In this document: positions 4,059 to 63,899 of the stretch, one piece after another
How the letters are laid out: every line of letters starts with the position of its first letter
Numbering within the stretch: position 1 is the stretch's first letter
Assembly: GCA_037481795.1 (NCBI GenBank)
Contig: JBBFLA010000004.1
Location: 42,673-106,672, forward strand
Reading direction: 5' to 3'
DNA from: Spirochaetota bacterium
GTDB taxonomy: Bacteria > Spirochaetota > UBA4802 > UB4802
DNA length: 64,000 bases
The notes under the pieces: model-generated
Told to the model about the DNA's origin: nothing
Seen by the model: the letters and a program-made list of their open reading frames with translations, nothing else
Database searches by the model: none
Program-made: the position numbers and the translations under genes

Positions 4059-4694
4059 TTATTTAAATAAAGATTTCTTCTTAATATACCAGAAAATAAA
4101 ATCTAAATGGGATATTGGTATTTCAATACTTTTACAAAATTCCTGCATGCCATGTTCAATATCTTTATACCGTTGTGGTGTCAAAGTGTTGGGAATTGTA
4201 TCAATAACGTGAAAATCCTTAAGGCATTGCAAAATATGCCTGTCAAGGATTGCAAGTTCCAGCCCAATGCCAATGTTTCGCAAAAAATGGCTGGATTCTT
4301 TGTATCCTAATCCATCAACGCTTTTAACCAGCTTATCTCTTGTTGCGTAAATGTCATTTCCCTGCAAAAATTCCTTCAATGAACTATCGCCAAATAAATC
4401 AACAGCCTTTTTAATGTATTTGGCTTTGTTATGTTTAAACCGCACAGGATGAATAATTGTGCTGATTTCCTCAATTGTTCCATTATACAGTTTGCCTGAA
4501 TTAAAAAGCGCTAATGCCTTCTCCCAGCACAAATTAGCGTTGCTCTGTGGAGTAAGCAGGCAAAATACCAGTTCAAGCAAAAGATATTGGGTAGTTTCAT
4601 GCCACAGACGCTTGAAAGAGTTAATTCGCAGTTGAATCTGGAATTCCAGTTGATGGCAAAGTTGATGCAGGGTTTGAATATCACAATTTTCCAT
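4059..4694 (-). CDS. ogg: N-glycosylase/DNA lyase, Ogg2/archaeal-type 8-oxoguanine DNA glycosylase (HhH-GPD)
   Basis: ~210 aa; HhH-GPD-like motif VDGLGYKESSHFLRNIGIG; size and motif match the thermophile/archaeal Ogg family. Confidence 0.65.
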   Translation of the reverse strand: MENCDIQTLHQLCHQLEFQIQLRINSFKRLWHETTQYLLLELVFCLLTPQSNANLCWEKALALFNSGKLYNGTIEEISTIIHPVRFKHNKAKYIKKAVDLFGDSSLKEFLQGNDIYATRDKLVKSVDGLGYKESSHFLRNIGIGLELAILDRHILQCLKDFHVIDTIPNTLTPQRYKDIEHGMQEFCKSIEIPISHLDFIFWYIKKKSLFK

Positions 4695-4965
4695 TAATGG
4701 TTCTGGCTACCTGTATTAAGCTTTCAATCCTGTGCATCAGGGTATCAAGAAATGTACTCTGGGGGTATAGGGAATATAGCTTCATGATCTCACTGTAATA
4801 TTGGTGCAGTAAAGCGTTAAGTGTGCTTTTCTGTGTTGGATCAACAATAATGTCATTTAGTGTATCTTGTAATTTATTATTCAGATGCGATAGTTCCTGA
4901 ATATCGCTCACATCCTGCAAAAAAGTCCGTGAAAGGTCAATAAGCATTGACAGAAGAGCATCCAT
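4681..4965 (-). CDS. Hypothetical small protein (94 aa), co-operonic with ogg
   Basis: ORF tightly packed between the methyltransferase and ogg (overlaps ogg by 14 nt); no family recognised. Confidence 0.4.
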   Translation of the reverse strand: MDALLSMLIDLSRTFLQDVSDIQELSHLNNKLQDTLNDIIVDPTQKSTLNALLHQYYSEIMKLYSLYPQSTFLDTLMHRIESLIQVARTINGKL

Positions 4966-4976
4966 AGTGTTTATAG

Positions 4977-5222
4977 CTATTCTTTGATATTTTGAATATA
5001 GTGATAGCCTTTGTGTGTTAAAAAAAGCTTGCCCGGGAATTTTGATTCAATCATTTCAATGAATTCTAATTTATTAACCAGCTCCTGAAGAACTGTATTG
5101 CGTTCTGACTGGGGGATTTCATTGAGTATATCAACTGGCATGGGCACGCCAGCTTTAATATCATTGCCATATTTATCTTTAAAAGCCTGCAGGATCATCT
5201 TTGCGTGGTAGCTTACTGTCAT
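4977..5222 (-). CDS. Hypothetical small protein (81 aa)
   Basis: ORF 22 nt downstream of the methyltransferase and 11 nt upstream of the 94-aa ORF; no family recognised. Confidence 0.4.
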   Translation of the reverse strand: MTVSYHAKMILQAFKDKYGNDIKAGVPMPVDILNEIPQSERNTVLQELVNKLEFIEMIESKFPGKLFLTHKGYHYIQNIKE

Positions 5223-5244
5223 AGAGTACTCCAGAAAAAGTAAA

Positions 5245-5814
5245 TTAATGTTTAAAAGCTTTGGCCATGTATGTAAACATAGTTAGCTTTTTAACAGTGA
5301 TTCCGGTAAATCCTGTTTCTTCAAGCAATTTTTTTACATACTCAGCGCTTATGCGCTCTTGTTTTGGTGGGCCAAAAATGGCATACTTGCTAAATTCAAT
5401 GATTATAATCTTACCGCCTTTTTTCAATGCTCTGTGAACATTAACAAGCATTTCTTTTTTGTCTTCAACTTCATGCAATACAAAACTCATAAATGCAAAC
5501 GTTGCCAAATCTTCAGGCACTGATGGGTTATTTTCGCTGGAATGTATTATTTCAATATTATTAATGTTTTGTTTTTTTATTTTGTGCGATAGTAACTGTA
5601 ACATTTCCTCCTGCGTATCAATAGCAATGACTTTGCCGCAAGTTAGAATCTGCGATGCCGGAATGCTGAAATATCCAGTCCCTGCACCAATATCAAGAAA
5701 GATGTCATTGCTTTTTAAACCAATTGTGCGTAATATCCTTGATGGCGGGAAAAATATCTTTCTTAATGTGCTGTCAAGATGTTTTGCGTGCTGTGGATGA
5801 AATGTATGTGGCAT
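5245..5814 (-). CDS. Class I SAM-dependent methyltransferase (Methyltransf_11-like)
   Basis: Motif I LDIGAGTGYFS; ~190 aa small-molecule/protein-type MTase fold. Confidence 0.75.
   Translation of the reverse strand: MPHTFHPQHAKHLDSTLRKIFFPPSRILRTIGLKSNDIFLDIGAGTGYFSIPASQILTCGKVIAIDTQEEMLQLLSHKIKKQNINNIEIIHSSENNPSVPEDLATFAFMSFVLHEVEDKKEMLVNVHRALKKGGKIIIIEFSKYAIFGPPKQERISAEYVKKLLEETGFTGITVKKLTMFTYMAKAFKH
5584..5598 (-). repeat. Copy of dispersed motif GTWACTATCGC (consensus ACAGTWACTATCGCCCC)
   Basis: GTGCGATAGTAACTG on + strand, inside the methyltransferase CDS. Confidence 0.8.
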
Positions 5815-5956: not shown

Positions 5957-5991
5957 ACTAAGTGGAAACGAATAGCACGAGGTATGTCAGA

Positions 5992-6420
5992 ATGTTTGAA
6001 TACAGTAAAATGATGCAAACCAATTACCTTCTTGAAAAGGCATTAGATGTGGAGTCTCTGCGCCGTAAGGTAATTGCAAACAATATTGCTAACGTAGATG
6101 TGCCACATTTTAAACGAAGTGAGGTTAATTTTGAAAGTGAGTTAAAACGGGCAATAGCTCATAATATGGATCCAATGAAGAATGTTGTGGCTCTTAAAAC
6201 TGATCCGCGGCATTACGATTTCTTTGAACCAAAAGATATCACAAGCGTACAACCCAGGGTTAATTTAGATTATACCACTACTTACCGGAATGATGGCAAC
6301 AATGTGGATGTGGAAAAAGAGATGGTGGATGCTGCAAAAAATCAGATGCGGTATAATGCATACGTGACAAGTTTAAATGAAAATTATAAAATACTAAAAA
6401 TGGTAATGAGAACAGTATAG
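5992..6420 (+). CDS. flgB: Flagellar basal-body rod protein FlgB
   Basis: LRRKVIANNIANVDVPHFKRSEVNFE matches the FlgB N-terminal rod motif. ORF track start 5962 is GTG; ATG at 5992 has RBS GAGGT. Confidence 0.85.
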   Translation: MFEYSKMMQTNYLLEKALDVESLRRKVIANNIANVDVPHFKRSEVNFESELKRAIAHNMDPMKNVVALKTDPRHYDFFEPKDITSVQPRVNLDYTTTYRNDGNNVDVEKEMVDAAKNQMRYNAYVTSLNENYKILKMVMRTV

Positions 6421-6434
6421 TGAGGTAACAGTGT

Positions 6435-6899
6435 ATGGGAATGTTTGATAGTTTCAACATATCGTCTACCGGATTGACAGCTCAGCGATTGCGGATGGAT
6501 GTTATCAGCAATAATATTGCCAATGCAACTACTACACGCACACCTGAAGGTGGTCCATATAAGCGCAAACGGGTAATATTTGCACCCGTGAATATACGAC
6601 CATTTTACAAATCGCCACTGGTACCCAAGCGTATTGATCATGGTGAACCAAAAGGTGTGCGGGTTGTTAAGATAGAAGATGATAATTCAGAATTCAGGCT
6701 TGTATATGACCCATCACATCCCGATGCAATTAAAACAGGACCAAAACAGGGATATGTTGAAATGCCCAATGTTAATGTAGTTATGGAAATGACCGATCTG
6801 ATATCCGCATCACGTTCGTATGAGGCCAACGTAATGATGATTAACAATGCCAAATCAATGTTTTCAAAAGCACTGGAAATTGGCAGAGGTGGCGTATAA
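6435..6899 (+). CDS. flgC: Flagellar basal-body rod protein FlgC
   Basis: MFDSFNISSTGLTAQRLRMDVISNNIANATTTRT and C-terminal SRSYEANVMMINNAKSMFSKALEIGR are canonical FlgC. Confidence 0.9.
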   Translation: MGMFDSFNISSTGLTAQRLRMDVISNNIANATTTRTPEGGPYKRKRVIFAPVNIRPFYKSPLVPKRIDHGEPKGVRVVKIEDDNSEFRLVYDPSHPDAIKTGPKQGYVEMPNVNVVMEMTDLISASRSYEANVMMINNAKSMFSKALEIGRGGV

Positions 6900-7489: not shown

Positions 7490-7636
7490 GTTTGTTGTGA
7501 AAATGGATTATGTCACTTTGCAAGGAATATATACTATGAACTATCGCCCTGTATTTTTTTTGATAATACCGGATATTCCGGGGATTACAGTAAAGCATAG
7601 TGTACATAATCACTAAGGTATGGGAGGGATCAGGGT

Positions 7637-9334
7637 ATGGAATTTTTTACCAAGATATTTAATCAGCTGAAAGAGATTTATTCAAAATTAGATACAACCA
7701 AAAAGATCATTATTGGCGTGGTTACCGGTGTACTTGTTATTGCATTTATTGTGTTGTTTTCGGTTTCATCGCAGAAAGCCAATGTGGTTTTATTTGCAGA
7801 TCTTCCCAGTGATGAGTTTGGGCAGGTTACCAAGAAACTTGAAGAAATGGGTTTTCATTATACAACATCTGGTACAACAACAATCCTTGTAAATCCCGAT
7901 CAGCGTGAAATTATTCTGACCAGGCTTGCTCAGGAAAATATGATTCCCAAGGGTATTCCGGGGTGGAAGCTTTTTGATATTTCAAAATGGACCGAAACGG
8001 ATAAAGAATTAAATGTAAAATATATGCGGGCATTGCGGGATGAAATTAAGCGGCATATTGAATCATTGAAAAATGTAGATAAGGCAGATGTTGAAATAGC
8101 AATAACCGAAGATGAGTTATTTGTTGATAAAGAAAATGCGTATACAGCTGCAGTTACCGTGTATCTGGCTCCAGGATATGATGTGCTTTCAAAAAAGGAA
8201 ATTAAAGGTATTCAGTATTTAGTTGCAAGAGCTGTAGGAACAAAATTAAAACCTGAAAATGTAACTGTGACTGATGAATATGGCAAGATTATTTCTGATT
8301 TTGATGATCAATTTGATAAAGCTAAAGAAGAATATACGCTCTTAGAATATAGAAAAAAGATAGAAGAAAAAGCGCGTGTGCAGATGCTGAAAGAAATTCG
8401 TGCGGGTTTAGAAAAGATATTCTCTCCTGATCGTATTCAGATTGTGCGCCTCAATATGGATTTTAACTGGGATAAGATTCAGGAAGAACAGGAAGAATAT
8501 ACACCAATAGAAATGGAAAAGGATAATCCTCTTACACCGTATTCTGAACGCAAGGTCAAAGACTCGTTAACTATCTCCAAAAAATCAACTAAAGAGCATT
8601 TTCAGGGGCATGGATGGAATCCAGAAGGCCCAGCAGGGACTGAAGGAAATAAACCACCTGGATACAAAGCAAGTGATGATCAGTTTGCAAAATATGATAA
8701 AGAAGAAAATGTTGAAAACAATGCTGTTAACAAGACAGTGCGCAAGATTGAACGTGATCCGTATGATGTAGCAAGTGTTTCTGTTGCAATTGCCATTGAC
8801 GGATATCAGGATTTGCCACGGCTTCCTGATGGAAGCTATGATTTAGATCCAACCAAAAAGCCGGTACAGGTTCCGCTAACTGAAGATGAACTGCGGCAGG
8901 CGGAAAATATTGTAAAAAAAGCAATTAATTTCAATCCTGCACGTGGTGACCAGGTTGCTGTTGAAAATATCATGTTTGACAGAACCAAACAGTGGGATGA
9001 GGTGCGAGAAGAATTTAGAAAGAAGGAACAGTTTAAGCGGATGTTGCTTGCAGCGCTGGTTGGAATTCTGGCATTATTCTTAGGTGTTGTATTATTCAGG
9101 GCTATTTCCCGTGAACTTGCCCGTAGAAGACGAATACGTGAAGAACAGCTTGCGCTTGAACAGCAGCGTATGCGCGAAGCTGCCCTACGAGCTGCTGAAG
9201 AAGAAGGTATTGATGTTGAACTGTCGCTTGAAGAAAAAGCAAGGCTTGAGCTGCAGCAGAATGCCATTAATCTTGCACGTGAACGCCCGGATGATGTGGC
9301 GCAGTTATTAAGGACGTGGCTGGCAGAAGAATAA
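7637..9334 (+). CDS. fliF: Flagellar M-ring protein FliF
   Basis: 565 aa; N-terminal TM helix; RBS GGGAGGGA; FliF/YscJ-like domain; C-terminal TM and Glu/Arg-rich tail. Confidence 0.9.
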   Translation: MEFFTKIFNQLKEIYSKLDTTKKIIIGVVTGVLVIAFIVLFSVSSQKANVVLFADLPSDEFGQVTKKLEEMGFHYTTSGTTTILVNPDQREIILTRLAQENMIPKGIPGWKLFDISKWTETDKELNVKYMRALRDEIKRHIESLKNVDKADVEIAITEDELFVDKENAYTAAVTVYLAPGYDVLSKKEIKGIQYLVARAVGTKLKPENVTVTDEYGKIISDFDDQFDKAKEEYTLLEYRKKIEEKARVQMLKEIRAGLEKIFSPDRIQIVRLNMDFNWDKIQEEQEEYTPIEMEKDNPLTPYSERKVKDSLTISKKSTKEHFQGHGWNPEGPAGTEGNKPPGYKASDDQFAKYDKEENVENNAVNKTVRKIERDPYDVASVSVAIAIDGYQDLPRLPDGSYDLDPTKKPVQVPLTEDELRQAENIVKKAINFNPARGDQVAVENIMFDRTKQWDEVREEFRKKEQFKRMLLAALVGILALFLGVVLFRAISRELARRRRIREEQLALEQQRMREAALRAAEEEGIDVELSLEEKARLELQQNAINLARERPDDVAQLLRTWLAEE

Positions 9335-16195: not shown

Positions 16196-17107
16196 TTATA
16201 TTAATTGTGATTCTTTATATTTAATAAGTTTATAAACCGTTGTATTATATGGTGTATTGATGCTGTATTGTTTAGCAATGGTAATGATAGAACCATTAAT
16301 AGAATCAATTTCGGTTTTTCGTTTTGCAAGAATGTCCTGCAGCATAGAACAAAAATTCTTCTGCGTATTTCTGCATACCGTCACTGTTGTTTCAAACATA
16401 TAGTTACTATCTATAAAAATACCATAAGCCTGTGCAACCAGACATGCCTCCTGTATGATACCTTTCATTATATGTAATGTATTATTGTTTTCAATGAGCT
16501 TGCCATTGGGTACTTCCAGCAACGCTCCCAGTGGATTTATCGCTGCATTAATGATAGCTTTTTCCCATATAGCTTTTTTAGGGTCAGGTGCGATAGTTAC
16601 TGTTAGATTAGCTTTTTGCAGCAATGAATGCACAGTGGAACAATGGCTGTAACTATCGCCGCCAATGATGATAGAGCCTGTTCCTCCAAAACGCACACTG
16701 GAAGGTGAAACCTTTGTGGCACCAATTGTGGTGGTCCCGTAGACTAACGGGTTGTTAATCATTGATGATATCAACTCAACATTGCCAATGCCATTTTGCA
16801 GTGTTACAACGATTGCATTGGGCTTAATGTGAGGTTGAATGGTACGAATTGCATCCTCAGTGGCAAAACTTTTAATGAACAAAAAGATGATATCAGCTGA
16901 AATAAGAATGGCAGGATCATTACTTATAGTGGGATAAAAAGTTTGTTGTACAGAATTTATTTCAACAGACAACCCATCCTTTATTGCATTAACTGTATTG
17001 GGATTAGTATCGTATAATAGTATGGTATACCTGCTGTGCAAAAAAAATGCAAACAGGGATCCCATTGCGCCTGCGCCAACTATTGCAATTACGGGTTTAT
17101 TATTCAT
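16196..17107 (-). CDS. panE: 2-dehydropantoate 2-reductase (ketopantoate reductase, ApbA/PanE family)
   Basis: N-terminal Rossmann IAIVGAGAMGS, conserved LQNGIGN motif, ApbA_C-like C-terminal domain; 303 aa. Confidence 0.75.
   Translation of the reverse strand: MNNKPVIAIVGAGAMGSLFAFFLHSRYTILLYDTNPNTVNAIKDGLSVEINSVQQTFYPTISNDPAILISADIIFLFIKSFATEDAIRTIQPHIKPNAIVVTLQNGIGNVELISSMINNPLVYGTTTIGATKVSPSSVRFGGTGSIIIGGDSYSHCSTVHSLLQKANLTVTIAPDPKKAIWEKAIINAAINPLGALLEVPNGKLIENNNTLHIMKGIIQEACLVAQAYGIFIDSNYMFETTVTVCRNTQKNFCSMLQDILAKRKTEIDSINGSIITIAKQYSINTPYNTTVYKLIKYKESQLI
16588..16602 (-). repeat. Copy of dispersed motif
   Basis: GTGCGATAGTTACTG inside panE; forms a near-perfect 13-bp inverted pair with 16647..16660 (44-nt spacer). 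Confidence 0.8.
16647..16660 (+). repeat. Copy of dispersed motif
   Basis: CTGTAACTATCGCC inside panE. Confidence 0.8.
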
Positions 17108-37700: not shown

Positions 37701-37708
37701 AGGTTTTT

Positions 37709-38320: not shown

Positions 38321-38352
38321 GGGGTATAAAATATTCATTGAATTTAAGTTAA

Positions 38353-38365
38353 CAGTAACTATCGC
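38353..38365 (+). repeat. Copy of dispersed motif
   Basis: CAGTAACTATCGC in the topA leader, 29 nt before the ATG. Confidence 0.8.
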
Positions 38366-38393
38366 TTAAAAATTAAAACGTAAGGAAGTAATT

Positions 38394-40496: not shown

Positions 40497-40501
40497 TACG
40501 T

Positions 40502-43365: not shown

Positions 43366-44256
43366 TTAATGTACCTTCTCCTTCTTTAACACTATCTTTT
43401 GCAATTCTTCCTGGGTAAACCAGTATTCTTTTTTACAAAAAACGCAGGTGATATGCGCACCATGATCTTTTTGTATCATATCTTCCAATTCCTGGGTTTC
43501 AACTGATTCAAGTATAGTTGCTAACAGTTCTTTTGTGCACCTGCACCTGTGCTGCAAGGGCAATGAGCCAATCTCTTTGATTTCTTTGCCAATAAGCTCT
43601 TCAATAATGGCTTTAATTAATTTTTCTTCTTCAAGATTTTTATCCAGTGAAAAGCCGCTTTGCAACCTGTGTTCAATTAATTCAATAACATGTGATGGTG
43701 TATTGGGAAATGTTTGTATTAAAATCCCCCCTGAACGTGTAATAGCGCCTTCTTTATTGCAATTGACCGCCAGTATCAGTGCTGAAGGTATTTGCTCTGA
43801 CTCCAGTAAGTAGTAGGCAATATCTTTTGCAATGTCACCATAAATAATGGGCGAAACACTCTTATAGGGCTCACGTAAACCTAAATCCCGTGTTACGGTA
43901 ATGACGCCTGCACCTAATGCTTTAGATATATTTAACATTTCTGATTCTAGTATCAGGTCAACATTGGGATTGCCAACATATCCTCGTACATTTCCTTTGC
44001 CGTCAACCTGTACCACTATCTCCTTTAAAGGGCCACTGCAGCTAATATGTATGCTCAACGTATCGTTTGAATGCGGTTTAAGTGAAGAAGCAGCAAGGAG
44101 CAGGGCAGCGTTTAGTGTGCGTCCAAATGCTATGGTTGCATGTGGTGTTGTGTTGTGAATGCTTGTTATCTCCTGCAATACATTTTTAGTCAGTGCAGCA
44201 TAGATCCTGAGATTGTAGTCCTGGCAGATGTATCGTAAGCTTAGATTATCTTCCAT
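43366..44256 (-). CDS. hslO: Redox-regulated chaperone Hsp33
   Basis: C-terminal zinc centre CRC...CVFC; 296 aa. Confidence 0.85.
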   Translation of the reverse strand: MEDNLSLRYICQDYNLRIYAALTKNVLQEITSIHNTTPHATIAFGRTLNAALLLAASSLKPHSNDTLSIHISCSGPLKEIVVQVDGKGNVRGYVGNPNVDLILESEMLNISKALGAGVITVTRDLGLREPYKSVSPIIYGDIAKDIAYYLLESEQIPSALILAVNCNKEGAITRSGGILIQTFPNTPSHVIELIEHRLQSGFSLDKNLEEEKLIKAIIEELIGKEIKEIGSLPLQHRCRCTKELLATILESVETQELEDMIQKDHGAHITCVFCKKEYWFTQEELQKIVLKKEKVH

Positions 44257-44271
44257 GGTAACTATCGCCCC
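44257..44271 (+). repeat. Copy of dispersed motif
   Basis: GGTAACTATCGCCCC in the 15-nt gap between the AOR paralog stop and the hslO start. Confidence 0.8.
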
Positions 44272-46146: not shown

Positions 46147-46189
46147 GGTGCGCTCCTGAAAATAGGATTTCACAGGTGATATTCTAAAA

Positions 46190-47375: not shown

Positions 47376-48545
47376 TTATTTAAAATGCACATTAAATATA
47401 ACTATCTCAGGATAGCTGTTGGTTCGTATAGGAGGCCCCCATGTACCATATCCACTTGATACATACACGTGAGTATTATGAATTACTTTGTATCCCCAGC
47501 TGATTTCATAGAGTTTTTTTGTGATATAGTTAAATGGGAATAATTGACCATGATGTGAATGGCCAGAAAGAAGAAGGTCAACAGGATATGAAGCTGTTTG
47601 TGATAGTTTAAATGGTTGATGGTCAATGACTATAATAGGTTTTGAAACATTTACCTGTTTTATTAAATTTTCTAATGATAAACGCCTAAAACCGGTAAAT
47701 GCAAATTTGCTTCTATCATCGCGCCCTATAATCTGTATATCACCAATGGTATACACTTCATCCCGTAAAACCTGTATATTATGATCTTTGATATAGTTAA
47801 TAGCGTTATCTATTCCCCCAATATATTCATGGTTTCCGGGTACTGCAATAACACCGTATCTGGCTTTCAGCTGTACCAGAAGCTCACCTAAATTATTTTC
47901 TATAACGGGTTTGATATCTTCATCAAGTATATCACCCCCAAAAATGATGAGATCTGGCTGTGCGTTATTTATAAGCCTTACCAGGTTTTGCAAACGAGAG
48001 TTTGCTATGATTGACCCCAGATGGATATCGCTGGCATACACTATTTTCAGGTGCTTTAATGATGAAGGCTTATTAATATGAATAGTTATTTCCTTTACAT
48101 GAGGTGTTCGCGCGTTAATAAATCCTGCAGATGTGATAACTATAGTTACAATAATGACTATGCAGTAGGCTGTCTTTTGAACATTAAGTGTTTTTGTAAA
48201 CAGATGAACTATTCCCTGGATACTATCGCCAATAATAAACCCAAAAAATAAATATATAAAAATACCTAACCAGAGTGCCCCAATCCAGATGAGGAAGTCA
48301 CTGGCTGCACAAACGGTATAGCGTTCAAGTATTCTACCAACTAGAAACGAAAGAGCAAGGATGCTTATAAAAGTTGCAGCTAAAATTTTATACTGATGGG
48401 GTACCAGTTTTTGTATGCGTTGCAGCACATAAAAATTGGCTGCCAAATAGATTATAAGAATTGCTGTGAAGATGGTATAAAACATTGAACTTCTCATAGA
48501 GTTGATTCCGTTATTATGGTATATGCTAATATTAGCACAACTCAA
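47376..48545 (-). CDS. Membrane-anchored metallophosphoesterase (calcineurin-like, YkuE-like)
   Basis: 4-5 N-terminal TM helices; MPP motifs ASDIHLG, GGDILDE, GNHE, GHSH. Confidence 0.8.
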   Translation of the reverse strand: MSCANISIYHNNGINSMRSSMFYTIFTAILIIYLAANFYVLQRIQKLVPHQYKILAATFISILALSFLVGRILERYTVCAASDFLIWIGALWLGIFIYLFFGFIIGDSIQGIVHLFTKTLNVQKTAYCIVIIVTIVITSAGFINARTPHVKEITIHINKPSSLKHLKIVYASDIHLGSIIANSRLQNLVRLINNAQPDLIIFGGDILDEDIKPVIENNLGELLVQLKARYGVIAVPGNHEYIGGIDNAINYIKDHNIQVLRDEVYTIGDIQIIGRDDRSKFAFTGFRRLSLENLIKQVNVSKPIIVIDHQPFKLSQTASYPVDLLLSGHSHHGQLFPFNYITKKLYEISWGYKVIHNTHVYVSSGYGTWGPPIRTNSYPEIVIFNVHFK

Positions 48546-55052: not shown

Positions 55053-55058
55053 GCAGCC

Positions 55059-55382
55059 ATGGATGTTTTGTTAAACTTTTTAATGAAATTGCTTGCCATT
55101 GCTATTTATATAGCCATGGGTGCGCTGGTGTCGTGGATATTTTACAGTTTAAAACGCCGTGATCTGTTTGGTGGATTTATTGGTGGTATGGTAATAGGTG
55201 TTATTGGTGCATTAATTGGCGGATTCATTCTTGATAAGCTGTTGCTTGATATAACAATAAAAATATTACGATTTTTAGTGTATGATACCGGTGTCAATAT
55301 CATTGCAGCGTTTATAGGCGGATATGCAGCAGTGTATGTCATGAACAAACTCAATCATGATAAGGAACGCAAACGCTATTAA
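55059..55382 (+). CDS. GlsB/YeaQ/YmgE-family small membrane protein
   Basis: Gly-zipper TM helices (GGFIGGMVIGVIGALIGGFIL); 107 aa. Confidence 0.6.
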   Translation: MDVLLNFLMKLLAIAIYIAMGALVSWIFYSLKRRDLFGGFIGGMVIGVIGALIGGFILDKLLLDITIKILRFLVYDTGVNIIAAFIGGYAAVYVMNKLNHDKERKRY

Positions 55383-57043
55383 AATCCTTCCGCAATTGCC
55401 TGTACAATATTTTCAGGAACATGTTCCAGATAGGGCTTTACATCATCCATACATGCAAAGGGGCGATGCACAATGATTGTTGATGCACCTTTTTTCCCAA
55501 TGCCCGGTATGGTTTCCAGAGCTTTTTGTGGCAGTGTGTTAATTGGTATTGGATATGGAAGGCACAGGAGAGATCGTTCTTGATGACCAACAACAATGCA
55601 ATCAACAAAACTAAAAAGCGGTAACCCTGCAGGAATTTTTGCCGTTATGGCGTAGCTTCTAATTTCTTTTGCGTACGAATAATCGTGCATACATGACATT
55701 ACCTGCATATTATACATAACAGTACCTATGGGGAATAGCCTGGCAATCATGGCATGGTCAATTACGCTTCTAATTTTTTCACGGTAAAAACGGTAACGGT
55801 TTTCAATCATTGTATTGTGTGTTTGTTTTTGTGCGGCGATAGTTCCCGGGAAGGGAAACAAACTACGTATATTAATCCGTTTCAAAAGCAGTCCTCTGTC
55901 AAGAATTTCCAGCAGCGATTCATAGTTGATTTTAAATGTGTCAGAGGTTTCACCAATAAGCCCATGAATAAGATTAATACCCGGTAAAAGTCTGTGGATG
56001 CCATTAATTATCTTGCCACCGGTATCGTTTATTAATTGTACAACCTGTATAACCTCTTCTTTTTGCAATTTAAGGTTGTTTTTTTGGATGACAGATGGAT
56101 CAAAAGATTCAACGCCTAACGGCATTGTATCGCCCGGAGTTACCGTATGAGCAATACAATCAATAATGGCCTGTGATTCTTCAGGAAAGTAAAAGATGGT
56201 ACCGGGATTTGCATTGTCAATGTTCAACATTTTGATATGCCCTTTTTGTGTTCGCTTTTGCAATTCAGTAAAAAGATTAATGACTGCAGCAGGATTTGGC
56301 CGCGGGAACCCGTGAACAAAGTCTTGCAGATGTGATTTATAAGCAATAATATCAGCCTGCCTTCCAATCCTGAATCTAAAAATCCCTTGAGCAATGAGTG
56401 CATCAATTTCACGTATGATATCTTCTTCATCTCTGAAATCAACAGATTGCAGTAACCCTTCAGCACAAAATGAGCAGTGATTGCGGCGTGGGCATCCTCT
56501 GTAAGTTTCTATCTCACAGATAAGGTTGGGGAATTGTGGGTGTAGCTTAACCAGCGTACTGCCGTAAACCGCCCAGCGTGCAAGGTCTTTGTATGTGCGA
56601 TAGTTACTGGTAACAGGACTACTGCCAGTAGCAATTGTATACGCAAACTGTTCGATATCACCAGTTACCAGTGTTGTATTGGTAAAATCCTTCACTAAGT
56701 GAGCTATCATACCGCCAATGGCAAATCTTTGACGTTTGTTTGCTGCAATGATTTTTGTAATTTCAGCAACAGTTCCTATTTTAAAGCCAAGGTATTTACC
56801 GGGAACTATTGCCCCCCCAATTAAAAAAACATAATGAAAATTATGTGGTAGCCGGTATTCAGCTTTGCGAAGAGCATCAATGGTAAGATACACAATTTCA
56901 TCATGGTATATACCGGCATCAATGAGTGCACCATACACATAGCGCGGGTAGGGGGAAACAAATGGCGGTACGCCAAAACACGCCGGTTCGTCCACGTAAC
57001 AATCAAGAATGCAGTATTGTTTATTCATGCTGTAATGATGCAA
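55379..57043 (-). CDS. Radical-SAM-superfamily protein with non-canonical CX5CX2C cluster motif and C-terminal helix-hairpin-helix
   Basis: YRGCPRRNHCSFCAEG verified in DNA (tgc cca cgc cgc aat cac tgc tca ttt tgt); C-terminal HhH LPQKALETIPGIGKKGASTII; 554 aa; overlaps the upstream HD gene by 23 nt. Confidence 0.55.
   Translation of the reverse strand: MHHYSMNKQYCILDCYVDEPACFGVPPFVSPYPRYVYGALIDAGIYHDEIVYLTIDALRKAEYRLPHNFHYVFLIGGAIVPGKYLGFKIGTVAEITKIIAANKRQRFAIGGMIAHLVKDFTNTTLVTGDIEQFAYTIATGSSPVTSNYRTYKDLARWAVYGSTLVKLHPQFPNLICEIETYRGCPRRNHCSFCAEGLLQSVDFRDEEDIIREIDALIAQGIFRFRIGRQADIIAYKSHLQDFVHGFPRPNPAAVINLFTELQKRTQKGHIKMLNIDNANPGTIFYFPEESQAIIDCIAHTVTPGDTMPLGVESFDPSVIQKNNLKLQKEEVIQVVQLINDTGGKIINGIHRLLPGINLIHGLIGETSDTFKINYESLLEILDRGLLLKRINIRSLFPFPGTIAAQKQTHNTMIENRYRFYREKIRSVIDHAMIARLFPIGTVMYNMQVMSCMHDYSYAKEIRSYAITAKIPAGLPLFSFVDCIVVGHQERSLLCLPYPIPINTLPQKALETIPGIGKKGASTIIVHRPFACMDDVKPYLEHVPENIVQAIAEGF
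56595..56610 (-). repeat. Copy of dispersed motif
   Basis: GTGCGATAGTTACTGG inside the radical SAM gene. Confidence 0.8.
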
Positions 57044-57623
57044 TAATATCTTCCAGAGGTTTTATAAGGTGTCTTTTTAATTTTTTTTCAATGATTATAA
57101 TAATGTCTTTGTTTTCAAGAATTTTGTTACAGCGTTCCGGTGTGGTGCCATAGCGTTTGAGCAGGTCTTCAATGCGCTGGTCAACTGTTACAATCTCATT
57201 GTGCATAACGCGTTTATCTGCGTAATACACTATATCTGCTTCATTGAGAGGTGAAGCCTCTGATGTGTCGCGTAAAAATACATGCTGCCCTACGATATCG
57301 GCTATTTCCGGATATCCTAAGGATTCTAAAAGTTGTTTGCCGGAAATGTCATGCTTTTCACCTGTTTTCAATGCACGGGATTTGGTGATGTCATGAAGCA
57401 ATGCTGCAGCACAAACTAAATCACGGTTGATTGTAACACTACCATTCAGATGATCAACGATGGTACAGGCAACCTTATATACCTGTAAAGAATGTTCAAG
57501 CACATTGGGCAGGATGTCATACTTCTGCAAAAGCGCTAAAGATGTTTTCATGTCAGGAATATTCATTAATGGTATCCACAGTAGTATATGATTTAATAAT
57601 ACACTATATGAGTAACATGTCAT
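57021..57623 (-). CDS. HD-domain phosphohydrolase (YqeK-like)
   Basis: H...HD motif: LEHSLQVYKVACTI...AALLHDITK. ATG at 57623 overlaps the upstream gene stop (ATGA); an alternative start at 57551 (MKTSLALL) would remove a hydrophobic 24-aa extension. Confidence 0.6.
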   Translation of the reverse strand: MTCYSYSVLLNHILLWIPLMNIPDMKTSLALLQKYDILPNVLEHSLQVYKVACTIVDHLNGSVTINRDLVCAAALLHDITKSRALKTGEKHDISGKQLLESLGYPEIADIVGQHVFLRDTSEASPLNEADIVYYADKRVMHNEIVTVDQRIEDLLKRYGTTPERCNKILENKDIIIIIEKKLKRHLIKPLEDIIASLQHE

Positions 57624-58327
57624 ATAATCATGTCAATAAAAAAGATTGAGCCAATATCAATTGCAAAAAGATCTGATAAAAAGGCAATGCTTTTGTTGTG
57701 GTTTTCAATAAAATTCACAATATTGGCGTAATCAGGATGGTGGTTTAAACGTCCGGTGAAGTAAACGGTGTCAGAGCACAAACCACTTGCACCGCCAATA
57801 AAACCGTACCGGTAGCCAGGAAGTTCAATATATCCAGGTTTAATGAGCAGTGAATCAATAGAATGTTTTATAGCAGCAGTGTGAATGGTAATGTCCGAGG
57901 TAATAATGGCATTTGAGTCAACAATGCAGGTTGAACATTTGGTGTATCCCTGGTTTACGTGAATCAGGGGGTCAGAGCATTGGGCTAAAATCTCTTTTAT
58001 GGTGCTATCAGTTACTTTTGTATTATGAAAAGCTATGCTGCCAGTATATGCGCAGTTATATGCACAGTCGTAAGGGTATTTTGCCTGTAGGTGGCTTTTG
58101 CCTGGTATTAATGTATAGTTTGATTGCGATAGTACCTGTAAAAAAGTCTTTTCAATATCTGGTTCATAAATGATATTGTTGCCAATGAAAAAAAGCTGGA
58201 TATCAGGGTGCCCTGCAACAGGCCGTTCAACGCGGGAACACAGTGGAATTGTAATGGGTGAAAATCTGTTGCGCGTTAAGCCTTTTATAACAGCCTGCGG
58301 TGTGTCAGGATTAATAATGGCAATCAT
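57620..58327 (-). CDS. Hypothetical protein (~235 aa) in operon with DUF1232 and HD proteins
   Basis: ATG at 58327 overlaps the DUF1232 stop (ATGA); the ORF-track N-terminal extension overlaps the upstream gene and is probably spurious. No family recognised. Confidence 0.45.
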   Translation of the reverse strand: MIAIINPDTPQAVIKGLTRNRFSPITIPLCSRVERPVAGHPDIQLFFIGNNIIYEPDIEKTFLQVLSQSNYTLIPGKSHLQAKYPYDCAYNCAYTGSIAFHNTKVTDSTIKEILAQCSDPLIHVNQGYTKCSTCIVDSNAIITSDITIHTAAIKHSIDSLLIKPGYIELPGYRYGFIGGASGLCSDTVYFTGRLNHHPDYANIVNFIENHNKSIAFLSDLFAIDIGSIFFIDMII

Positions 58328-58719
58328 GGTTTTAAAAGCCTGATAATTCCGGTAACTATCGCATACATAAAAAAACCTATACAGAACCACACAAGAATAA
58401 TAAGTAAAAGCCCCAGCACAATAAATCCCAATGACTTTTTAAATGCTGAATGCGCCTGCACCTTACATTCTTCATAAACAGGTTGTGGAATAGATTTTAT
58501 TGCTATAAAAAATAAAAACGGTAGTATGACAGCGTCATCCAGATATCCAATGAATGGAATAAAATCAGGCACCAAATCAACTGGGGACAGAGCATATGCT
58601 ATTGTCACTATAATTATGATTTTTGACCATAGTGAGACTTCAGGATGCTTGATAGCAACCAGCAATGCACCAACAGTGTCACGGAAGTTAAAGAATATTT
58701 TTTTAAATTTGCTTTTCAT
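58324..58719 (-). CDS. DUF1232/YkvA-family membrane protein
   Basis: Signature DLVPDFIPFIGYLDD followed by TM helices; 131 aa. Confidence 0.65.
   Translation of the reverse strand: MKSKFKKIFFNFRDTVGALLVAIKHPEVSLWSKIIIIVTIAYALSPVDLVPDFIPFIGYLDDAVILPFLFFIAIKSIPQPVYEECKVQAHSAFKKSLGFIVLGLLLIILVWFCIGFFMYAIVTGIIRLLKP
58349..58365 (+). repeat. Copy of dispersed motif (17-mer identical to 60127..60143)
   Basis: CCGGTAACTATCGCATA near the 3' end of the DUF1232 CDS. Confidence 0.8.
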
Positions 58720-58916: not shown

Positions 58917-60116
58917 TTAATTAAAATAATCAAACAGCATAATAAAATCCATATCGCCAATGGTCAGGTGCTTTTGCCTGTACTTCTGGTAGATATTTCG
59001 TTTAGCTGATTCCAGCGCTTCAGGTTTTATGCCATATTTTATGGAAAATGAAGCTTCAAGAAATGCAGCAAAATCATCACAGGCTTTAAGCATCTGCCCA
59101 TCCAGCGGATTGAACCTGTCCTCATTATACTGAGTATTCAATTCTTCAGGGGATATTTTTATGGTTACAGAATCATTATGCCATATCTTATTTTCAAATT
59201 CATTGAATATATAATATCGCATTTCGTTATGCCACTTTTCAGGTATGAGGGGGAAAATACGATTATTAGCTTCAATGATTTCGTACTCTTTGATGAGTTC
59301 TTCCAGACCTTTGATAGAACGTTTGACAGGCGAAACAATGTCACGGGTGAGTACTTCCGGCAGGTCGTGAAAAAGCGAAGCAAAAAAATTATTATACATG
59401 CGTTTTGCGCAAGCACCCAGTTCACGCGAGCAAAAGTAGGAAAGCATTGCTACAATAAGCATGTGCCCCAAAACCGATGTCTTTGGTATTCGTGGCGTTT
59501 GTGCCCACCGTTGCTGAAATCGCAACTGTCCGCACAAATTGATAAACCCGGCAATATTGCGGTGTGAAAGTATCTTCTGCACGCCAGTTAAATCAATATG
59601 ATATTCAATCTGACTTTCTATCTCATTTTTTGTTTTTTCAATGTCGTATAAAAATTTATTACTCTGGTAAATAATCTGAAATTCCCAGTTGGTGGCAAGG
59701 TAATGCGCTGCTTGCAGTATTTTTTTTTCAAACGGTGCAAATTGTGTGTCCTGAAAATACCGTAAAAATGTTTCTTTAAAATTTCCTTTAACAGGGCTTA
59801 TATCGTCGTCAAGCTGAGCAAAAACCCATTCGTTGAGTTCTTTGCCTTTTTCTTTCATTATCTTATGAAAAATGGGCGGTTTAATGTCAGTTACTATCAC
59901 CCGGTGCAAAAGTTCAAAGATGCCGCCTTCAATAAGGTGTATCCAGTTTACACAACCTGGATTTTCTTCTTCCTGAAATTTAGCTATTGTATAAGCAATT
60001 ATCATTTTATGTGCCTGTTTGTCAATTTCGGTAAATTCGGTGGGGCGTGCATGGTCATTCCATCGCTGAATGCTTGCTGCCTGAAACAACTTTTCAATTA
60101 AACCTTTTGGTATCAT
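58917..60116 (-). CDS. HD-domain protein with YfbR-like (5'-deoxynucleotidase-type) C-terminal domain and ~200-aa N-terminal extension
   Basis: LGHMLIVAML...FHDLPEVLTRDIVSPVK resembles the YfbR H...HD...D pattern; ATG at 60116 has RBS GGAG; the ORF-track start 60203 is likely too early. Confidence 0.55.
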   Translation of the reverse strand: MIPKGLIEKLFQAASIQRWNDHARPTEFTEIDKQAHKMIIAYTIAKFQEEENPGCVNWIHLIEGGIFELLHRVIVTDIKPPIFHKIMKEKGKELNEWVFAQLDDDISPVKGNFKETFLRYFQDTQFAPFEKKILQAAHYLATNWEFQIIYQSNKFLYDIEKTKNEIESQIEYHIDLTGVQKILSHRNIAGFINLCGQLRFQQRWAQTPRIPKTSVLGHMLIVAMLSYFCSRELGACAKRMYNNFFASLFHDLPEVLTRDIVSPVKRSIKGLEELIKEYEIIEANNRIFPLIPEKWHNEMRYYIFNEFENKIWHNDSVTIKISPEELNTQYNEDRFNPLDGQMLKACDDFAAFLEASFSIKYGIKPEALESAKRNIYQKYRQKHLTIGDMDFIMLFDYFN

Positions 60117-60126
60117 AGAATAATCT

Positions 60127-60143
60127 CCGGTAACTATCGCATA
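60127..60143 (+). repeat. Copy of dispersed motif (17-mer identical to 58349..58365)
   Basis: CCGGTAACTATCGCATA immediately upstream of the RBS of the HD-domain gene (minus strand). Confidence 0.8.
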
Positions 60144-60227
60144 TGAAAATAAAACTTGCATGGTCTTGTAAATGCAAGTAAAATATTGAATAGTGTAGAG
60201 CAATAGTTAACGGTAAAAGAAATATAT

Positions 60228-60244
60228 GGGGCGATAGTTACTGT
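60228..60244 (-). repeat. Copy of dispersed motif
   Basis: GGGGCGATAGTTACTGT in the leader 4 nt before the ATG of the hydrogenase maturation protease gene; inverted relative to the 60127 copy. Confidence 0.8.
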
Positions 60245-60247
60245 AAA

Positions 60248-60700
60248 ATGGAAACACAGTGCAAAAAACTCATACTGGGAATTGGAAACCCTCTGCGTAG
60301 CGATGATATTGCAGGAAGTATCGTTGCACGCAAGCTGAAACTATTGGGGCTTACAGGTATAGATGCAGAGTTTATGCCCGAAAATTACATTGGTGTTATA
60401 CGAAGGAACAAACCAGAGAAAATCATTGTTGTGGACTGCTGTGATATGAACCTGCCACCGGGCTCTGTGCGAAATATACCGGTACATAAAATTCACAGCG
60501 GAATAGTAACCACACATAGTCTGCCGTTAAAAGCCGTTATGCAACAATTACTTGAAATAACCCCCAATATCATGTTTATTGGAATACAGCCTGAAAATAT
60601 AGAAGTGGGCGATACAGTAAGTGATGCGGTTAATACGGCTATAGAGCAGATTGTTGCAATAATCAGTAGTGGGAATGAGGATGCTATAGCACTGCTATGA
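60248..60700 (+). CDS. Hydrogenase maturation protease (HycI/HyaD/FrhD family)
   Basis: Signature ILGIGNPLRSDDIAGS; 150 aa. Confidence 0.75.
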   Translation: METQCKKLILGIGNPLRSDDIAGSIVARKLKLLGLTGIDAEFMPENYIGVIRRNKPEKIIVVDCCDMNLPPGSVRNIPVHKIHSGIVTTHSLPLKAVMQQLLEITPNIMFIGIQPENIEVGDTVSDAVNTAIEQIVAIISSGNEDAIALL

Positions 60701-61416: not shown

Positions 61417-61441
61417 GGCTGGTATATGACCAGCCTTTTTT
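61417..61441 (+). terminator. Bidirectional rho-independent terminator
   Basis: GGCTGGT-atatg-ACCAGCC hairpin with an A6 run upstream and a T6 run downstream; serves convergent transcripts. Confidence 0.75.
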
Positions 61442-61481
61442 ATTTTTACATCGGAGGTTCTTATGGGTTGCTCTAATGCGG

Positions 61482-61622
61482 TTATTCTGCAGCTATGAAA
61501 TTTCTGAAACTGAAAATCTTGTTTTTTAAATTTTCATTCTTTGCTACTAATTCAGAATAAAGGTCTTCAACATTTCTCCAGTATGAACAATTGGTATCTA
61601 TACAATAGGTATTTGCTTTCAT
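61482..61622 (-). CDS. Possible small ORF (46 aa)
   Basis: ATG with strong SD GAAGGAGG (7-nt spacing); MKANTYCIDTNCSYWRNVEDLYSELVAKNENLKNKIFSFRNFIAAE; terminator downstream; below the ORF-track cutoff. Confidence 0.35.
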   Translation of the reverse strand: MKANTYCIDTNCSYWRNVEDLYSELVAKNENLKNKIFSFRNFIAAE

Positions 61623-61931
61623 GGTAATCCTCCTTCAACTAACCGGAATAAAAATAAAACTTATAAATTTAATATATACTAAAATACTTAAAATGGCAAG
61701 CAAAAATTTATAAAATTTTAAAAAACTCATAAACTAAAATTTTTGCTTGTATATTCATCTTTCAGTTGTTATAGTACCGTTGCATGTTTACAGATTGCCA
61801 ATTTTGCTTTCGGTGTACCTGATTCTTCTGTAATACTGCATCACGTGCATGCCAGCATAAGGATGTTATACGATATCTATAGTAGAATCTGTTGCTGTTT
61901 TTATGAATAAATTTTTTTTCGGAGGTACTAT

Positions 61932-63899
61932 ATGAGCGGTTATATGGGTCAGTATGTAATTATTAATCTCTCCACTGGTAAATCCACTATCAAAAAACTG
62001 TCTGATGATTTTTACAAAAAGTATTTAGCAGGCTATGGTATGGGTGTTGCCATAATCAGCCAATTGCAAAAGCCAAAAATTAATCCATTGTCACCGGAAA
62101 GCGTACTTGGATTTTGTTCGGGTCTTTTAACAGGAAGCGGGGCATATTTTGCAGGGCGGTTTATGGTAGTTGGTAAATCGCCATTAACGGGAGGCTGGGG
62201 CGATAGTAACTGTGGAGGGTTCTTTTCGGTAGAAATAAAGCGCGCTGGATTTGATGCAATATTTGTTACCGGCAAGGCAAAAACGCCGGTATATATAGTC
62301 ATTAATGATGGTAAAATACAGATAAAAAATGCAAAGAAGTTGTGGGGAAAGGATACCATTGAAACAGAAGAACTCATAAAAAAAGAGCTTAACGATGATA
62401 AATATCAGGTTGCCTGTATAGGGCCTGCTGCAGAGAAACTATCACTCATATCAGGTATTGTAACCGATGGAGGAAGAATTGCTGCACGCAGTGGATTGGG
62501 CGCTGTCATGGGAAGCAAGAAGTTAAAAGCCATTGCCATAAAAGGAACAAAGAAAATACCGGTTGCAAAACCTGATGTTTTAAAGGAAATTAATAAAAAA
62601 TTTTTAGCAAGTTTTAAATCAACCAGCCCCATTGATAAAGCCACTGTCAATATGATGAATTTTTTAAGCCAGATTATAGCGCGAACCAGGGTATCAGTTC
62701 CAACACAGCCTTCAACGGTACGTGAAATATTTAAACGGTACGGTACAAGTGGCACAACAGTGTATTCTGCATTTACCGGTGATACGCCAATCAAAAACTG
62801 GGCTGGTGTTGGGTATTTAGATTTTCCAGGTGTTCAAAAAATTTCTGATGAAAGTGTGGTAGCACATCAAAAGAAACGATATGCATGCCAGTCATGTCCG
62901 CTTGGATGTGGTGGCATTGTTGACATAAAAGCTGGAAGGTATAAGGGCACAGAAGGACACAAGCCAGAATATGAAACTCTGGGCTCTTTTGGTGGTATGC
63001 TTTTACTGGATGATTTAGATGTAATAATGGAAATAAATGAATTATGCAACAGAGCTGGTATTGATACCATATCTACAGGTACTGCTGTTGCATTTGCTAT
63101 TGAATGCTATGAGCATGGGATATTAACAAAGAAAGACACTGGCGGATTAGAGTTAGGCTGGGGCAAAGCTCAAGAAATACTTACATTAACAGAGATGATA
63201 ATTAACAGGAAAGGAATTGGCAACATACTGGCCGATGGAGTAATGCGTGCAGCAAAGAAGATAGGCAAAGGTTCTGAAAGTTTTGCCATTCATGCTGGCG
63301 GTCAGGAGCTTCCCATGCATGATAGCCGGCTGGATGATGGATTTGCTGTTACCTATTCTTCTGAAGCAACACCAGGGCGCCATACCATTGCATCAAATTT
63401 ATACAATCATCTATACAGAACTAAAAAGCAATTTCCCATGGTTAAGAAAATGCTAAAAAATGCAAACAGTAGCACTGCAAAACGCTTAACCCTGACAGCT
63501 GCATCAATGTATTTTGCTAATCTATTTAATGGTTGCGGTATGTGCCAGTTTGGATTTTTAAGTGGCTCAATTCCACTGGTTGATTATATTAATGCTGTGA
63601 CTGGATGGGATTTGCCTGCCGATGAGTATTTAACAATTGGTGAGCGTATCCTTAATATGCGAAAAGCTTTCAATGTACGGGAAGGGTTATATGTTAAGGA
63701 CACAATTATCCCTGATCGTGCACAGGGCAAGCCACCACTACAGGAAGGCCCATTAAAAGGTGTGGCTGTTCCCATTAATGAATTGCTAAATGAATTTTTT
63801 GCTATAACCGGATGGGAACCTAAAACTGGTGGCCCAACTGATGCTAAGCTAAAAGAATTGGGAATTGAGGATTTATTTGGTTCTAAAAAAAGCAAATAA
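61932..63899 (+). CDS. aor: Aldehyde:ferredoxin oxidoreductase (tungsten/molybdopterin AOR family)
   Basis: Canonical AOR N-terminal domain (QYVIINLSTGK...GKSPLTGGWGDSNCGG) and Fe-S/pterin-binding cysteines (CQSCPLGCGG); 655 aa. Confidence 0.9.
   Translation: MSGYMGQYVIINLSTGKSTIKKLSDDFYKKYLAGYGMGVAIISQLQKPKINPLSPESVLGFCSGLLTGSGAYFAGRFMVVGKSPLTGGWGDSNCGGFFSVEIKRAGFDAIFVTGKAKTPVYIVINDGKIQIKNAKKLWGKDTIETEELIKKELNDDKYQVACIGPAAEKLSLISGIVTDGGRIAARSGLGAVMGSKKLKAIAIKGTKKIPVAKPDVLKEINKKFLASFKSTSPIDKATVNMMNFLSQIIARTRVSVPTQPSTVREIFKRYGTSGTTVYSAFTGDTPIKNWAGVGYLDFPGVQKISDESVVAHQKKRYACQSCPLGCGGIVDIKAGRYKGTEGHKPEYETLGSFGGMLLLDDLDVIMEINELCNRAGIDTISTGTAVAFAIECYEHGILTKKDTGGLELGWGKAQEILTLTEMIINRKGIGNILADGVMRAAKKIGKGSESFAIHAGGQELPMHDSRLDDGFAVTYSSEATPGRHTIASNLYNHLYRTKKQFPMVKKMLKNANSSTAKRLTLTAASMYFANLFNGCGMCQFGFLSGSIPLVDYINAVTGWDLPADEYLTIGERILNMRKAFNVREGLYVKDTIIPDRAQGKPPLQEGPLKGVAVPINELLNEFFAITGWEPKTGGPTDAKLKELGIEDLFGSKKSK
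62197..62213 (-). repeat. Copy of dispersed motif
   Basis: GGGGCGATAGTAACTGT inside the AOR CDS (codes WGDSNC). Confidence 0.8.

Follow-up and report, generated by a model that had tools for sequence, protein, structure and literature searches.

A stretch of 64,000 nucleotides from a Spirochaetota bacterium (assembly GCA_037481795.1, contig JBBFLA010000004.1, positions 42,673 to 106,672 of the forward strand; hereafter the window) carries the asymmetric octamer ACTATCGC far more often than chance would allow. This octamer, which is not self-complementary (its reverse complement is GCGATAGT), is a tag that acts at the DNA level and belongs to one genus- or family-level clade, being neither restricted to the window nor common to the phylum. 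The reading ranked first, at a probability of roughly 0.4, is that it forms the core of a self-recognition tag for DNA uptake resembling the uptake signal sequences (USS) of Pasteurellaceae and the DNA uptake sequences (DUS) of Neisseriaceae; a site like highly iterated palindrome 1 (HIP1) of cyanobacteria is the main rival. The material analyzed comprised about 64 kb of the source genome and pieces of 8–22 kb from its relatives.

An exact search returned 25 copies of ACTATCGC in the window, 11 on the forward and 14 on the reverse strand. One hundred dinucleotide-preserving shuffles gave an expectation of 0.84 copies and a largest value of 3, and an order-3 Markov model gave 1.3, so that the excess is 19–30-fold and chance is excluded by both tests. 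The initial annotation of this DNA had proposed expectations of these two kinds for a count over the whole genome. By the Markov measure, ACTATCGC is the top-ranked over-represented 8-mer of the window, and the overlapping words AACTATCG and CTATCGCC also stand at the top of the list. The longer core GTWACTATCGC was found 12 times, the number first reported, against 0.01 expected. The initial annotation had counted 23 octamers; the excess that it described is real, although copies at 22899 (−) and 44715 (−) were missed, and its coordinates were mostly right, with 4867 to be read as 4887 and 48223 as 48222. The near-miss copies that it mentioned also exist, two of them displaced by 1–5 bases. 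Variants with one mismatch number 43 in the window against 32 +/- 5 expected, an excess of only about 11, and the consensus is thus unusually strong, with 25 perfect copies where about 1 is expected. The spacing of the copies is Poisson-like, with a coefficient of variation of 1.07 and no regularity.

The form of the motif was derived from the 25 window copies and then from 101 copies of the window and its relatives, with the copies used to find those genomes excluded. The consensus is asymmetric and about 20 bp long, TTnaCAGtAACTATCGCc followed by an A-rich, G-poor flank. The alignment gives T T n a C A G t A, the octamer, and then c; beyond this, G is almost lacking and A is more frequent to about position +14. 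The flanks are informative from −9 to about +14, and some 22 bits are spread over 20 or more bases; the extended motif-bearing sequence, written out in full, is TTnaCAGTAACTATCGCCnAAAA. Similarity among copies ends at about 20 bp. A partial palindrome at the left edge of the motif, AGTWACT, showed no independent enrichment (15 sites, 7 of them inside the motif, with 5.6 expected), and the idea of a palindrome was dropped, as the motif itself accounts for the excess of AGTWACT.

The best matches of the TopA and RelA/SpoT proteins of the window are from uncultured Spirochaetota metagenome-assembled genomes (MAGs). A syntenic contig with about 74% nucleotide identity to the window (L001) contains 7 copies of the octamer in 13 kb, and a closer one with 89% identity (L002) contains 3 in 4.5 kb. 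Two loci were fetched through RelA homologues and not selected by the motif: L093 has 14 copies within 22 kb, and L096 has 4 within 15 kb. With these, the unselected loci, window included, amount to 118.7 kb and 53 copies (0.45/kb). The 17-mer ACAGTWACTATCGCCCC was searched for in 185,579 species, each represented by one genome, and matched 71 loci, about half of which are single chance matches in unrelated taxa. The MAGs in which the 17-mer recurred are all Spirochaetota (UBA2205, A05DMB-I-13, R1_Bin_METABAT__127_1, binchicken_co40_101, SulCav_AS07-7_37_12, AMR_MDS_4586, and JPNA_maxbin.144), and with the seeded copy removed the 8-kb loci, from six further MAGs, still hold 0.20–0.38 copies/kb, compared with 0.05 in unrelated loci. 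Altogether, the motif is carried by at least eight related Spirochaetota MAG lineages with 34–40% GC, at 0.2–0.6 copies/kb. Six outgroup lineages (L074, L076, L077, L097, L099, and L100), with TopA or RelA 64–73% identical to that of the window, 42–60% GC, and shared gene order around dprA-topA-xerC or relA, hold 1 copy in about 125 kb. Many of the pooled loci were found by means of the motif; seeded copies were masked, and the unselected loci are given separately. Orthologous copies across several genomes are non-independent observations, and genes in the related loci are approximated by the longest open reading frames (ORFs).

Confinement of the copies to the window had been named at the outset as the result that would point to a local repeat. 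The presence of the motif on numerous contigs from numerous genomes, with enrichment in independent contigs of several relatives, excludes a local duplication. Nor was a phage or mobile-element source seen among viral contigs, in which the 17-mer gave 14 matches, all single and at chance level.

Within the window, 21 of the 25 copies lie in ORFs and 4 in spacers. Across the clade pool, the motif is read on the sense strand as T-I-A, x-Y-R, or x-L-S and on the antisense strand as A-I-V or G-D-S; five of the six frames are used, with no copies in the sixth, which creates TAG. Because five frames and spacers are used, the signal is one of DNA and not a protein motif or an artefact of codon usage. 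The initial annotation had reasoned in the same way, having correctly read the peptides YAIVTG, WGDSNC, and TVTIAP and correctly placed copies in front of topA, fliF, hslO, and a hycI-type protease gene. Non-coding DNA makes up 12.6% of the pooled sequence but holds 20% of the copies, the other 80% being intragenic in either orientation. Orientation was unbiased relative to local GC skew, at 47:56 for the pooled and 22:31 for the unselected loci, and relative to gene strand, at 42:50 for the pooled loci. GC skew is positive throughout the window, which therefore lies on one replichore, and the motif orientations are nonetheless balanced.

Alignments of orthologous sites with and without the motif show point substitutions and no indels. 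In the comparison of the window with L001, two of four window copies and two of seven L001 copies are common to both, and the others are lineage-specific. With seeded 17-mers masked, perfect copies were retained in 50% of cases at 70–80% identity, in 72% at 80–90%, and in 100% above 90%, compared with 12–16%, 30–31%, and about 70% for 8-mers of the same composition or other 8-mers; overall, perfect copies were kept 2–3 times more often than composition-matched words. Retention of one-mismatch variants was only slightly above background. The initial annotation had asked whether coding copies sit at non-conserved positions relative to orthologues, and two situations were observed. At variable positions the motif comes with replacements (VTIA versus IDIK or VRID, GDS versus GRL or SNN, and YR versus YN or YK), whereas other copies stand in conserved peptides such as GVLSP, DYRD, and ALSL, where the motif is used synonymously. 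Sequence identity in the flanks equals the alignment average (0.805 versus 0.814), and the pattern of divergent flanks known for the DUS was not reproduced.

A Chi-like or other nuclease-modulating signal of "self," which would switch a RecBCD/AddAB-type enzyme or a defence nuclease, fits the octamer in length (8 nt) and density (one per 2–3 kb), both within the known range of Chi, and would accord with the chance-level matches in viral contigs. Known Chi and KOPS motifs are, however, co-oriented with replication and show leading-strand skew, which is missing from the pooled loci, the unselected loci, and the window (11:14) alike, and a 20–30-fold excess with extended flanks goes beyond Chi sites. 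Because the skew is absent, a Chi/KOPS-type signal is excluded, as the strand symmetry had already suggested in the initial annotation, and a nuclease signal is a highly improbable explanation. Barely credible is an origin from ends or remnants of small mobile elements (repetitive extragenic palindromic (REP) sequences, miniature inverted-repeat transposable elements (MITEs), or insertion sequences), from a protein or codon-usage artefact, or by chance. A separate REP-like word, GCTCTGAC, is indeed present in these genomes, arrayed about IS200-type Y1 transposase genes. REP and MITE sequences, however, are inserted, mostly intergenic, hairpin-forming, and often near a Y1 (REP-associated tyrosine transposase, RAYT) gene, features in which ACTATCGC does not share: it differs from motif-free orthologues by substitutions and not insertions, most copies sit in genes without disrupting them, and it has no hairpin potential. 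A mobile-element remnant is excluded because indels, hairpins, and shared flanks past about 20 bp are absent and viral matches are at chance, and against artefact or chance stand the five frames with five different peptides and the 100 shuffles, none of which exceeded 3 copies. If a sequence-specific bias in mutation or repair (very-short-patch-type repair with a cytosine methyltransferase, or biased gene conversion) kept regenerating the word as a neutral by-product, the process would be clade-specific and indifferent to frame and strand, and the motif does contain a CpG. The C-to-T and G-to-A derivatives, however, are not depleted (ACTATTGC, ACTATCAC, ACTATCGT, and ATTATCGC occur at 2.2, 3.1, 4.2, and 0.96 times expectation, respectively), which excludes a deamination-repair bias. 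One repair reaction would not account for about 22 asymmetric bits over 20 or more bases, and perfect copies are conserved well above composition-matched words whereas one-off words are not; a bias of this kind is thus improbable. What remains after these exclusions is a tag that is read on the double strand, made by ordinary mutation, and preferentially kept.

A HIP1-like oligomer would be the site of an abundant intracellular protein, nucleoid-associated or chromosome-organizing, or of an orphan methyltransferase; selection would then preserve it for its role in chromosome structure or maintenance and not for import. HIP1 itself (GCGATCGC) is an octamer in 15–300-fold excess that occupies all frames and is conserved between genomes, with lineage-specific variants (PMC5861425) and a function that is unresolved (PMC5861425, PMC4390886), and the profile of ACTATCGC matches it. 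The lack of terminator association and of visible competence genes besides dprA would also suit such a site, and GCGATAGT has GCGAT in common with GCGATCGC, although this is a resemblance only. HIP1 is, however, a perfect palindrome that contains methyltransferase sites, whereas ACTATCGC is asymmetric, unlike HIP motifs and most dimeric protein sites, and its partial palindrome AGTWACT has no enrichment of its own. The great excess of perfect over one-off copies has been described as atypical of intracellular binding sites (PMC1626085), 80% of the copies are intragenic in either orientation, and no methyltransferase gene was seen among the Pfam-scanned proteins of the window. We regard this explanation as rather unlikely. 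The interpretation given in the initial annotation, which had itself offered a HIP1-like oligomer or abundant-protein site as an alternative, is partly supported; all of its reasoning that can be examined in sequence data stands.

For the two known uptake sequences, Redfield et al. (PMC1626085) listed shared attributes: many copies, no preferred orientation, a place in coding DNA although non-coding DNA is favoured, occurrence across related species, a consensus of unusual strength, creation by point mutation, and stability of individual copies. Treangen et al. (PMC2397512) added that the uptake motif itself is highly conserved. An uptake tag is ranked first because all of these attributes are found here (PMC1626085, PMC2397512) and because the A-rich 3′ flank recalls the Haemophilus USS; the resemblance to USS and DUS noted in the initial annotation is borne out by the strong consensus, point-substitution origin, and excess conservation. 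Like the USS (AAGTGCGGT / ACAAGCGGT, with AT-rich 3′ flanks), the motif joins a short asymmetric core to informative flanks and an A/T-rich 3′ segment (PMC1626085). The two are also alike in showing no orientation bias, in using several coding frames with mild enrichment in spacers, in being common to related species, in the preponderance of perfect over one-off copies, and in having copies created by point substitution that persist from one species to another. The USS differs in its unrelated sequence and phylum, in its density (about 1/kb versus about 0.4/kb), in forming inverted pairs at terminators, and in being spaced more evenly than random. ComN is its predicted receptor (10.1101/2025.06.16.659825). 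The DUS of Neisseriaceae (GCCGTCTGAA and its dialects) is likewise a clade-wide conserved word (PMC2397512), one that is over-represented in housekeeping genes and kept by mutation-selection balance or molecular drive (PMC2397512). It differs in having no flanking motif, frequent terminator-hairpin pairs, flanking regions more divergent than average where those of the motif are average, and dialects, of which none is clear in the outgroups here. The DUS receptor is ComP.

With ACTATCGC as its core, an asymmetric element of about 20 bp, read on the double strand, marks at about 0.4 copies/kb the chromosomes of an uncultured, low-GC, anaerobic clade of Spirochaetota of genus or family rank, and the genome-wide number of copies presumably lies in the hundreds to thousands. 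If the element is an uptake tag, a sequence-specific receptor of the DNA-import (natural transformation) apparatus would prefer tagged fragments, and alleles with the tag would return to the population by import and recombination more often than tagless ones. Point mutations that create a tag would then spread and those that destroy one would be purged, by molecular drive and possibly selection as well. The sequences show the excess of the word, its action at the DNA level, its strand symmetry, its confinement to one clade, its creation by substitution, its strong consensus, and its excess retention; that an uptake receptor reads it, and that the host clade is competent at all, we infer.

Several observations weigh against an uptake tag. 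The density of about 0.4/kb is two- to three-fold below the roughly 1/kb of USS and DUS, and the copies are not spaced more evenly than random. About half of DUS and USS lie in terminators, often as inverted pairs (10.1101/2025.10.24.684340), and none of this was found here: RNA folds at the four intergenic window copies scored no better than shuffles, and close pairs (17 direct, 16 divergent, and 8 convergent) occur in about the number expected by chance with no preferred orientation. HIP1 shows the same statistical profile and is not an established uptake signal (PMC5861425, PMC4390886). The literature searched contained no report of natural transformation in Spirochaetota, and full-text searches found neither ACTATCGC nor any uptake-type sequence reported for spirochaetes, the matches to the octamer being primers and unrelated oligonucleotides. 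Competence machinery was sought by Pfam searches of 20 window proteins and a second set of 6 (4 from the window, 2 of those repeats) and by a heuristic scan of 796 ORFs, which cover at most a few percent of any genome; no pilin, PilT/B, or ComEC-like candidate was seen, and only dprA was found. This gene, the presence of which had been reported correctly, lies at 36612–37700 (+), is syntenic with L001 gene 8209–9306 (PF02481), and is the single transformation-related gene of the window. dprA is near-universal in bacteria, and the dprA-x-topA-xerC arrangement also exists in the motif-free outgroups. Our support for the uptake reading is therefore tentative, because preferential uptake is a prediction, dprA stands by itself, terminator pairs are lacking, density is lower, and the profile of HIP1 is alike.

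At the left end of the window, one copy lies antisense (4383–4390, +) in an 8-oxoG glycosylase-like gene (4059–4694, −), which reads it as G-D-S; the next (4887–4894, −) falls in a short ORF (4681–4965, −) or spacer, and a third (5586–5593, −), acagttACTATCGC, is sense in the ORF at 5245–5814 (−), giving L-S. The copy at 7540–7547 (+) is intergenic, 89 nt upstream of fliF (7637–9334). Two divergent copies 62 nt apart, both common to L073, occupy the panE/ApbA gene (16196–17107, −), one sense (16590–16597, −; T-I-A) and one antisense (16652–16659, +; G-D-S). Sense copies read as L-S are found in a TonB-dependent-receptor-like gene (22899–22906, −, in 22228–24618, −), this being one of the two missed earlier, and in a MotA/ExbB gene (26658–26665, −, in 26080–26745, −). 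A MiaB-like gene (31503–32813, +) has a sense T-I-A copy (31896–31903, +) that is kept in L001 at about 75% nucleotide identity, and an intergenic copy 28 nt upstream of topA (38358–38365, +) is kept in L001 and L002. The xerC/D gene (40502–41410, +) contains two sense copies: the first (40640–40647, +; V-T-I-A at a variable protein position) is present in L002 and absent from L001 and the outgroups, and the second (40896–40903, +; D-Y-R, synonymous use in a conserved peptide) is absent from L001.

Two aldehyde:ferredoxin oxidoreductase (AFOR) paralogues are encoded in the window, at 44272–46173 (−) and 61932–63899 (+). The first is the site of the densest motif cluster, with four copies inside and one at the stop codon. 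All four inner copies are sense: 44715–44722 (−), the second addition to the earlier listing, reads L-S in the conserved GVLSP; 45227–45234 (−) reads T-I-A where the outgroup has T-M-S; and 45319–45326 (−) and 46093–46100 (−) read Y-R where it has Y-N and Y-K, respectively. The copy at the stop codon (44261–44268, +) fills the 15 nt that separate the AFOR stop codon from the start of hslO, is kept in L093, and reads GGGGCGATAGT on the coding strand, directly before the ATG. Further along, an antisense G-D-S copy (48222–48229, +) lies in a metallophosphoesterase gene (47376–48545, −), and two sense copies lie in a radical-SAM gene (55379–57043, −), one reading T-I-A (55836–55843, −) and one Y-R (56597–56604, −), the latter kept in L047. 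The DUF6873 gene (57620–58390, −) has a sense L-S copy (58126–58133, −) kept in L047, and an antisense copy in the overlap of the DUF6873 and DUF1232 ORFs (58355–58362, +) is lost in L029 and L047. An HD_3/YfbR-like gene (58917–60203, −) carries an antisense A-I-V copy (60133–60140, +) that is kept in L029 and L047. Two copies have the full 17-mer: ACAGTAACTATCGCCCC (60231–60238, −) lies in the spacer 9 nt ahead of the hycI-type protease gene (60248–60700), with orthologous copies in L026, L029, L047, and L093, and ACAGTTACTATCGCCCC (62200–62207, −) is antisense in the second AFOR gene, with the reading G-D-S. In the conserved intergenic copies at 44257–44272 and 60228–60247, the G-rich flank of the reverse strand (GGGGCGATAGT) is placed 4–17 nt before the hslO and hycI-type start codons; orthologous sites of these two copies are at 18524 and 3817 of L093, 1788 of L026, and 4230 of L047. 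Standing at the Shine-Dalgarno position, the hslO and hycI spacer copies may do double duty.

The gene order dprA, a conserved protein of about 200 amino acids without a Pfam match (37709–38320), topA, and xerC spans 36612–43360 of the window and can be followed out to 65–68% TopA identity. It runs on into hslV and hslU in the window, L074, and L077, and L076 has a PAS/GGDEF gene after xerC.

The word GCTCTGAC is the second over-represented word of the clade. It can be extended to [T/G]GCTCTGAC[A/C]C[C/T]. The word was counted 54 times over 317 kb, where 3.8 copies are expected, and the window holds 4 copies against 0.5 expected, at 29874–29881 (−), 43794–43801 (+), 57770–57777 (−), and 57971–57978 (−). 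It forms same-strand non-coding arrays that flank an IS200-type Y1 transposase gene (L023 5350–7700; gene at 6097–6669, PF01797, E 3e-13). It is also found at L063 4160–4342, where the gene from position 4459 resembles the Y1 family N-terminally in a 26-residue fragment without a Pfam hit, and some copies inside genes are read as GSDT or ALT. This word looks like a REP/RAYT-type system, unlike ACTATCGC.

No convincing alternative word that could serve as a dialect was found in the outgroups, the 8-mers of L074, L076, L097, L099, and L100 being at noise level. L077 (60% GC) shows a weak excess of CGATATCGC, with 9 copies over 22 kb where about 1 is expected. They lie on both strands and use at least three frames (read as DIA, AIS, and GDI), at 1594, 1771, 4720, 7405, 8145, 11871, 17670/17672, and 19813. 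The word has TATCGC(C) in common with the clade motif and a palindromic core, CGATATCG. Noticed post hoc in a small sample, it might represent a remote dialect or a palindrome of the HIP kind. L076 has GATATCGC 4 times against 0.8 expected. L097 (RelA 73% identical, 45.7% GC) has six copies of CTCCGAAA within 14.7 kb (2720, 6806, 6848, 8614, 9138, and 10291), where 0.26 are expected; five share one strand, and several take the form GATATCTCCGAAA. The top word of L097, CGCAAAGA, was rejected as a dialect, being a local repeat in short intergenic tandem arrays (3941–3982 and 4086–4111); neither word resembles ACTATCGC. Outside the low-GC clade, L048 (MAG Spirochaetales RGIG6909 from sheep rumen, 45% GC) has five copies of ACTATCGC in 8 kb. 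Two of these are a local duplication (ACTATCGCCAGAACTATCGCCAG), and L048 was left out of the ingroup count. Among the clade MAGs, CAZDWJ01 (L017, L026, L039, L052, and L093) and DYLU01 (L020, L023, and L061) are titled "uncultured Leptospira sp." and "Leptospira biflexa." None of the window's 120 best TopA and RelA matches is named Leptospira, the nearest named being unclassified Spirochaetota, and these titles look doubtful.

A clade-specific, hyper-abundant, conserved DNA word is of a kind already known; new here are the sequence, the phylum, the asymmetry together with the absence of pairing at terminators, and, presumably, the protein that reads the word. Only two families, both proteobacterial, are known for sequence-specific DNA uptake (PMC1626085; 10.1101/2025.10.24.684340), and there is still debate over how uptake tags arose and what they are for. 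It is possible, if doubtful, that ACTATCGC represents the first uptake-type self-recognition sequence outside the Proteobacteria, which would make the clade transformable, its receptor unrelated to ComP and ComN, and the origins of such sequences at least three in number. Should the motif prove HIP1-like instead, it would give HIP1-type words their first member that is not a palindrome and broaden a problem that is still unsolved. For practical purposes, ACTATCGC serves as a sharp marker of taxonomy when contigs of this clade are binned. If it is an uptake tag, syntenic motif-bearing and motif-free sister lineages would offer a clean comparative system in which to search for the receptor. Natural competence would be predicted where no genetics exists, and tagging of donor DNA could make these bacteria tractable. 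A third independent case, in a distant and uncultured phylum, would mean that self-recognition in DNA uptake is a recurrent evolutionary outcome.

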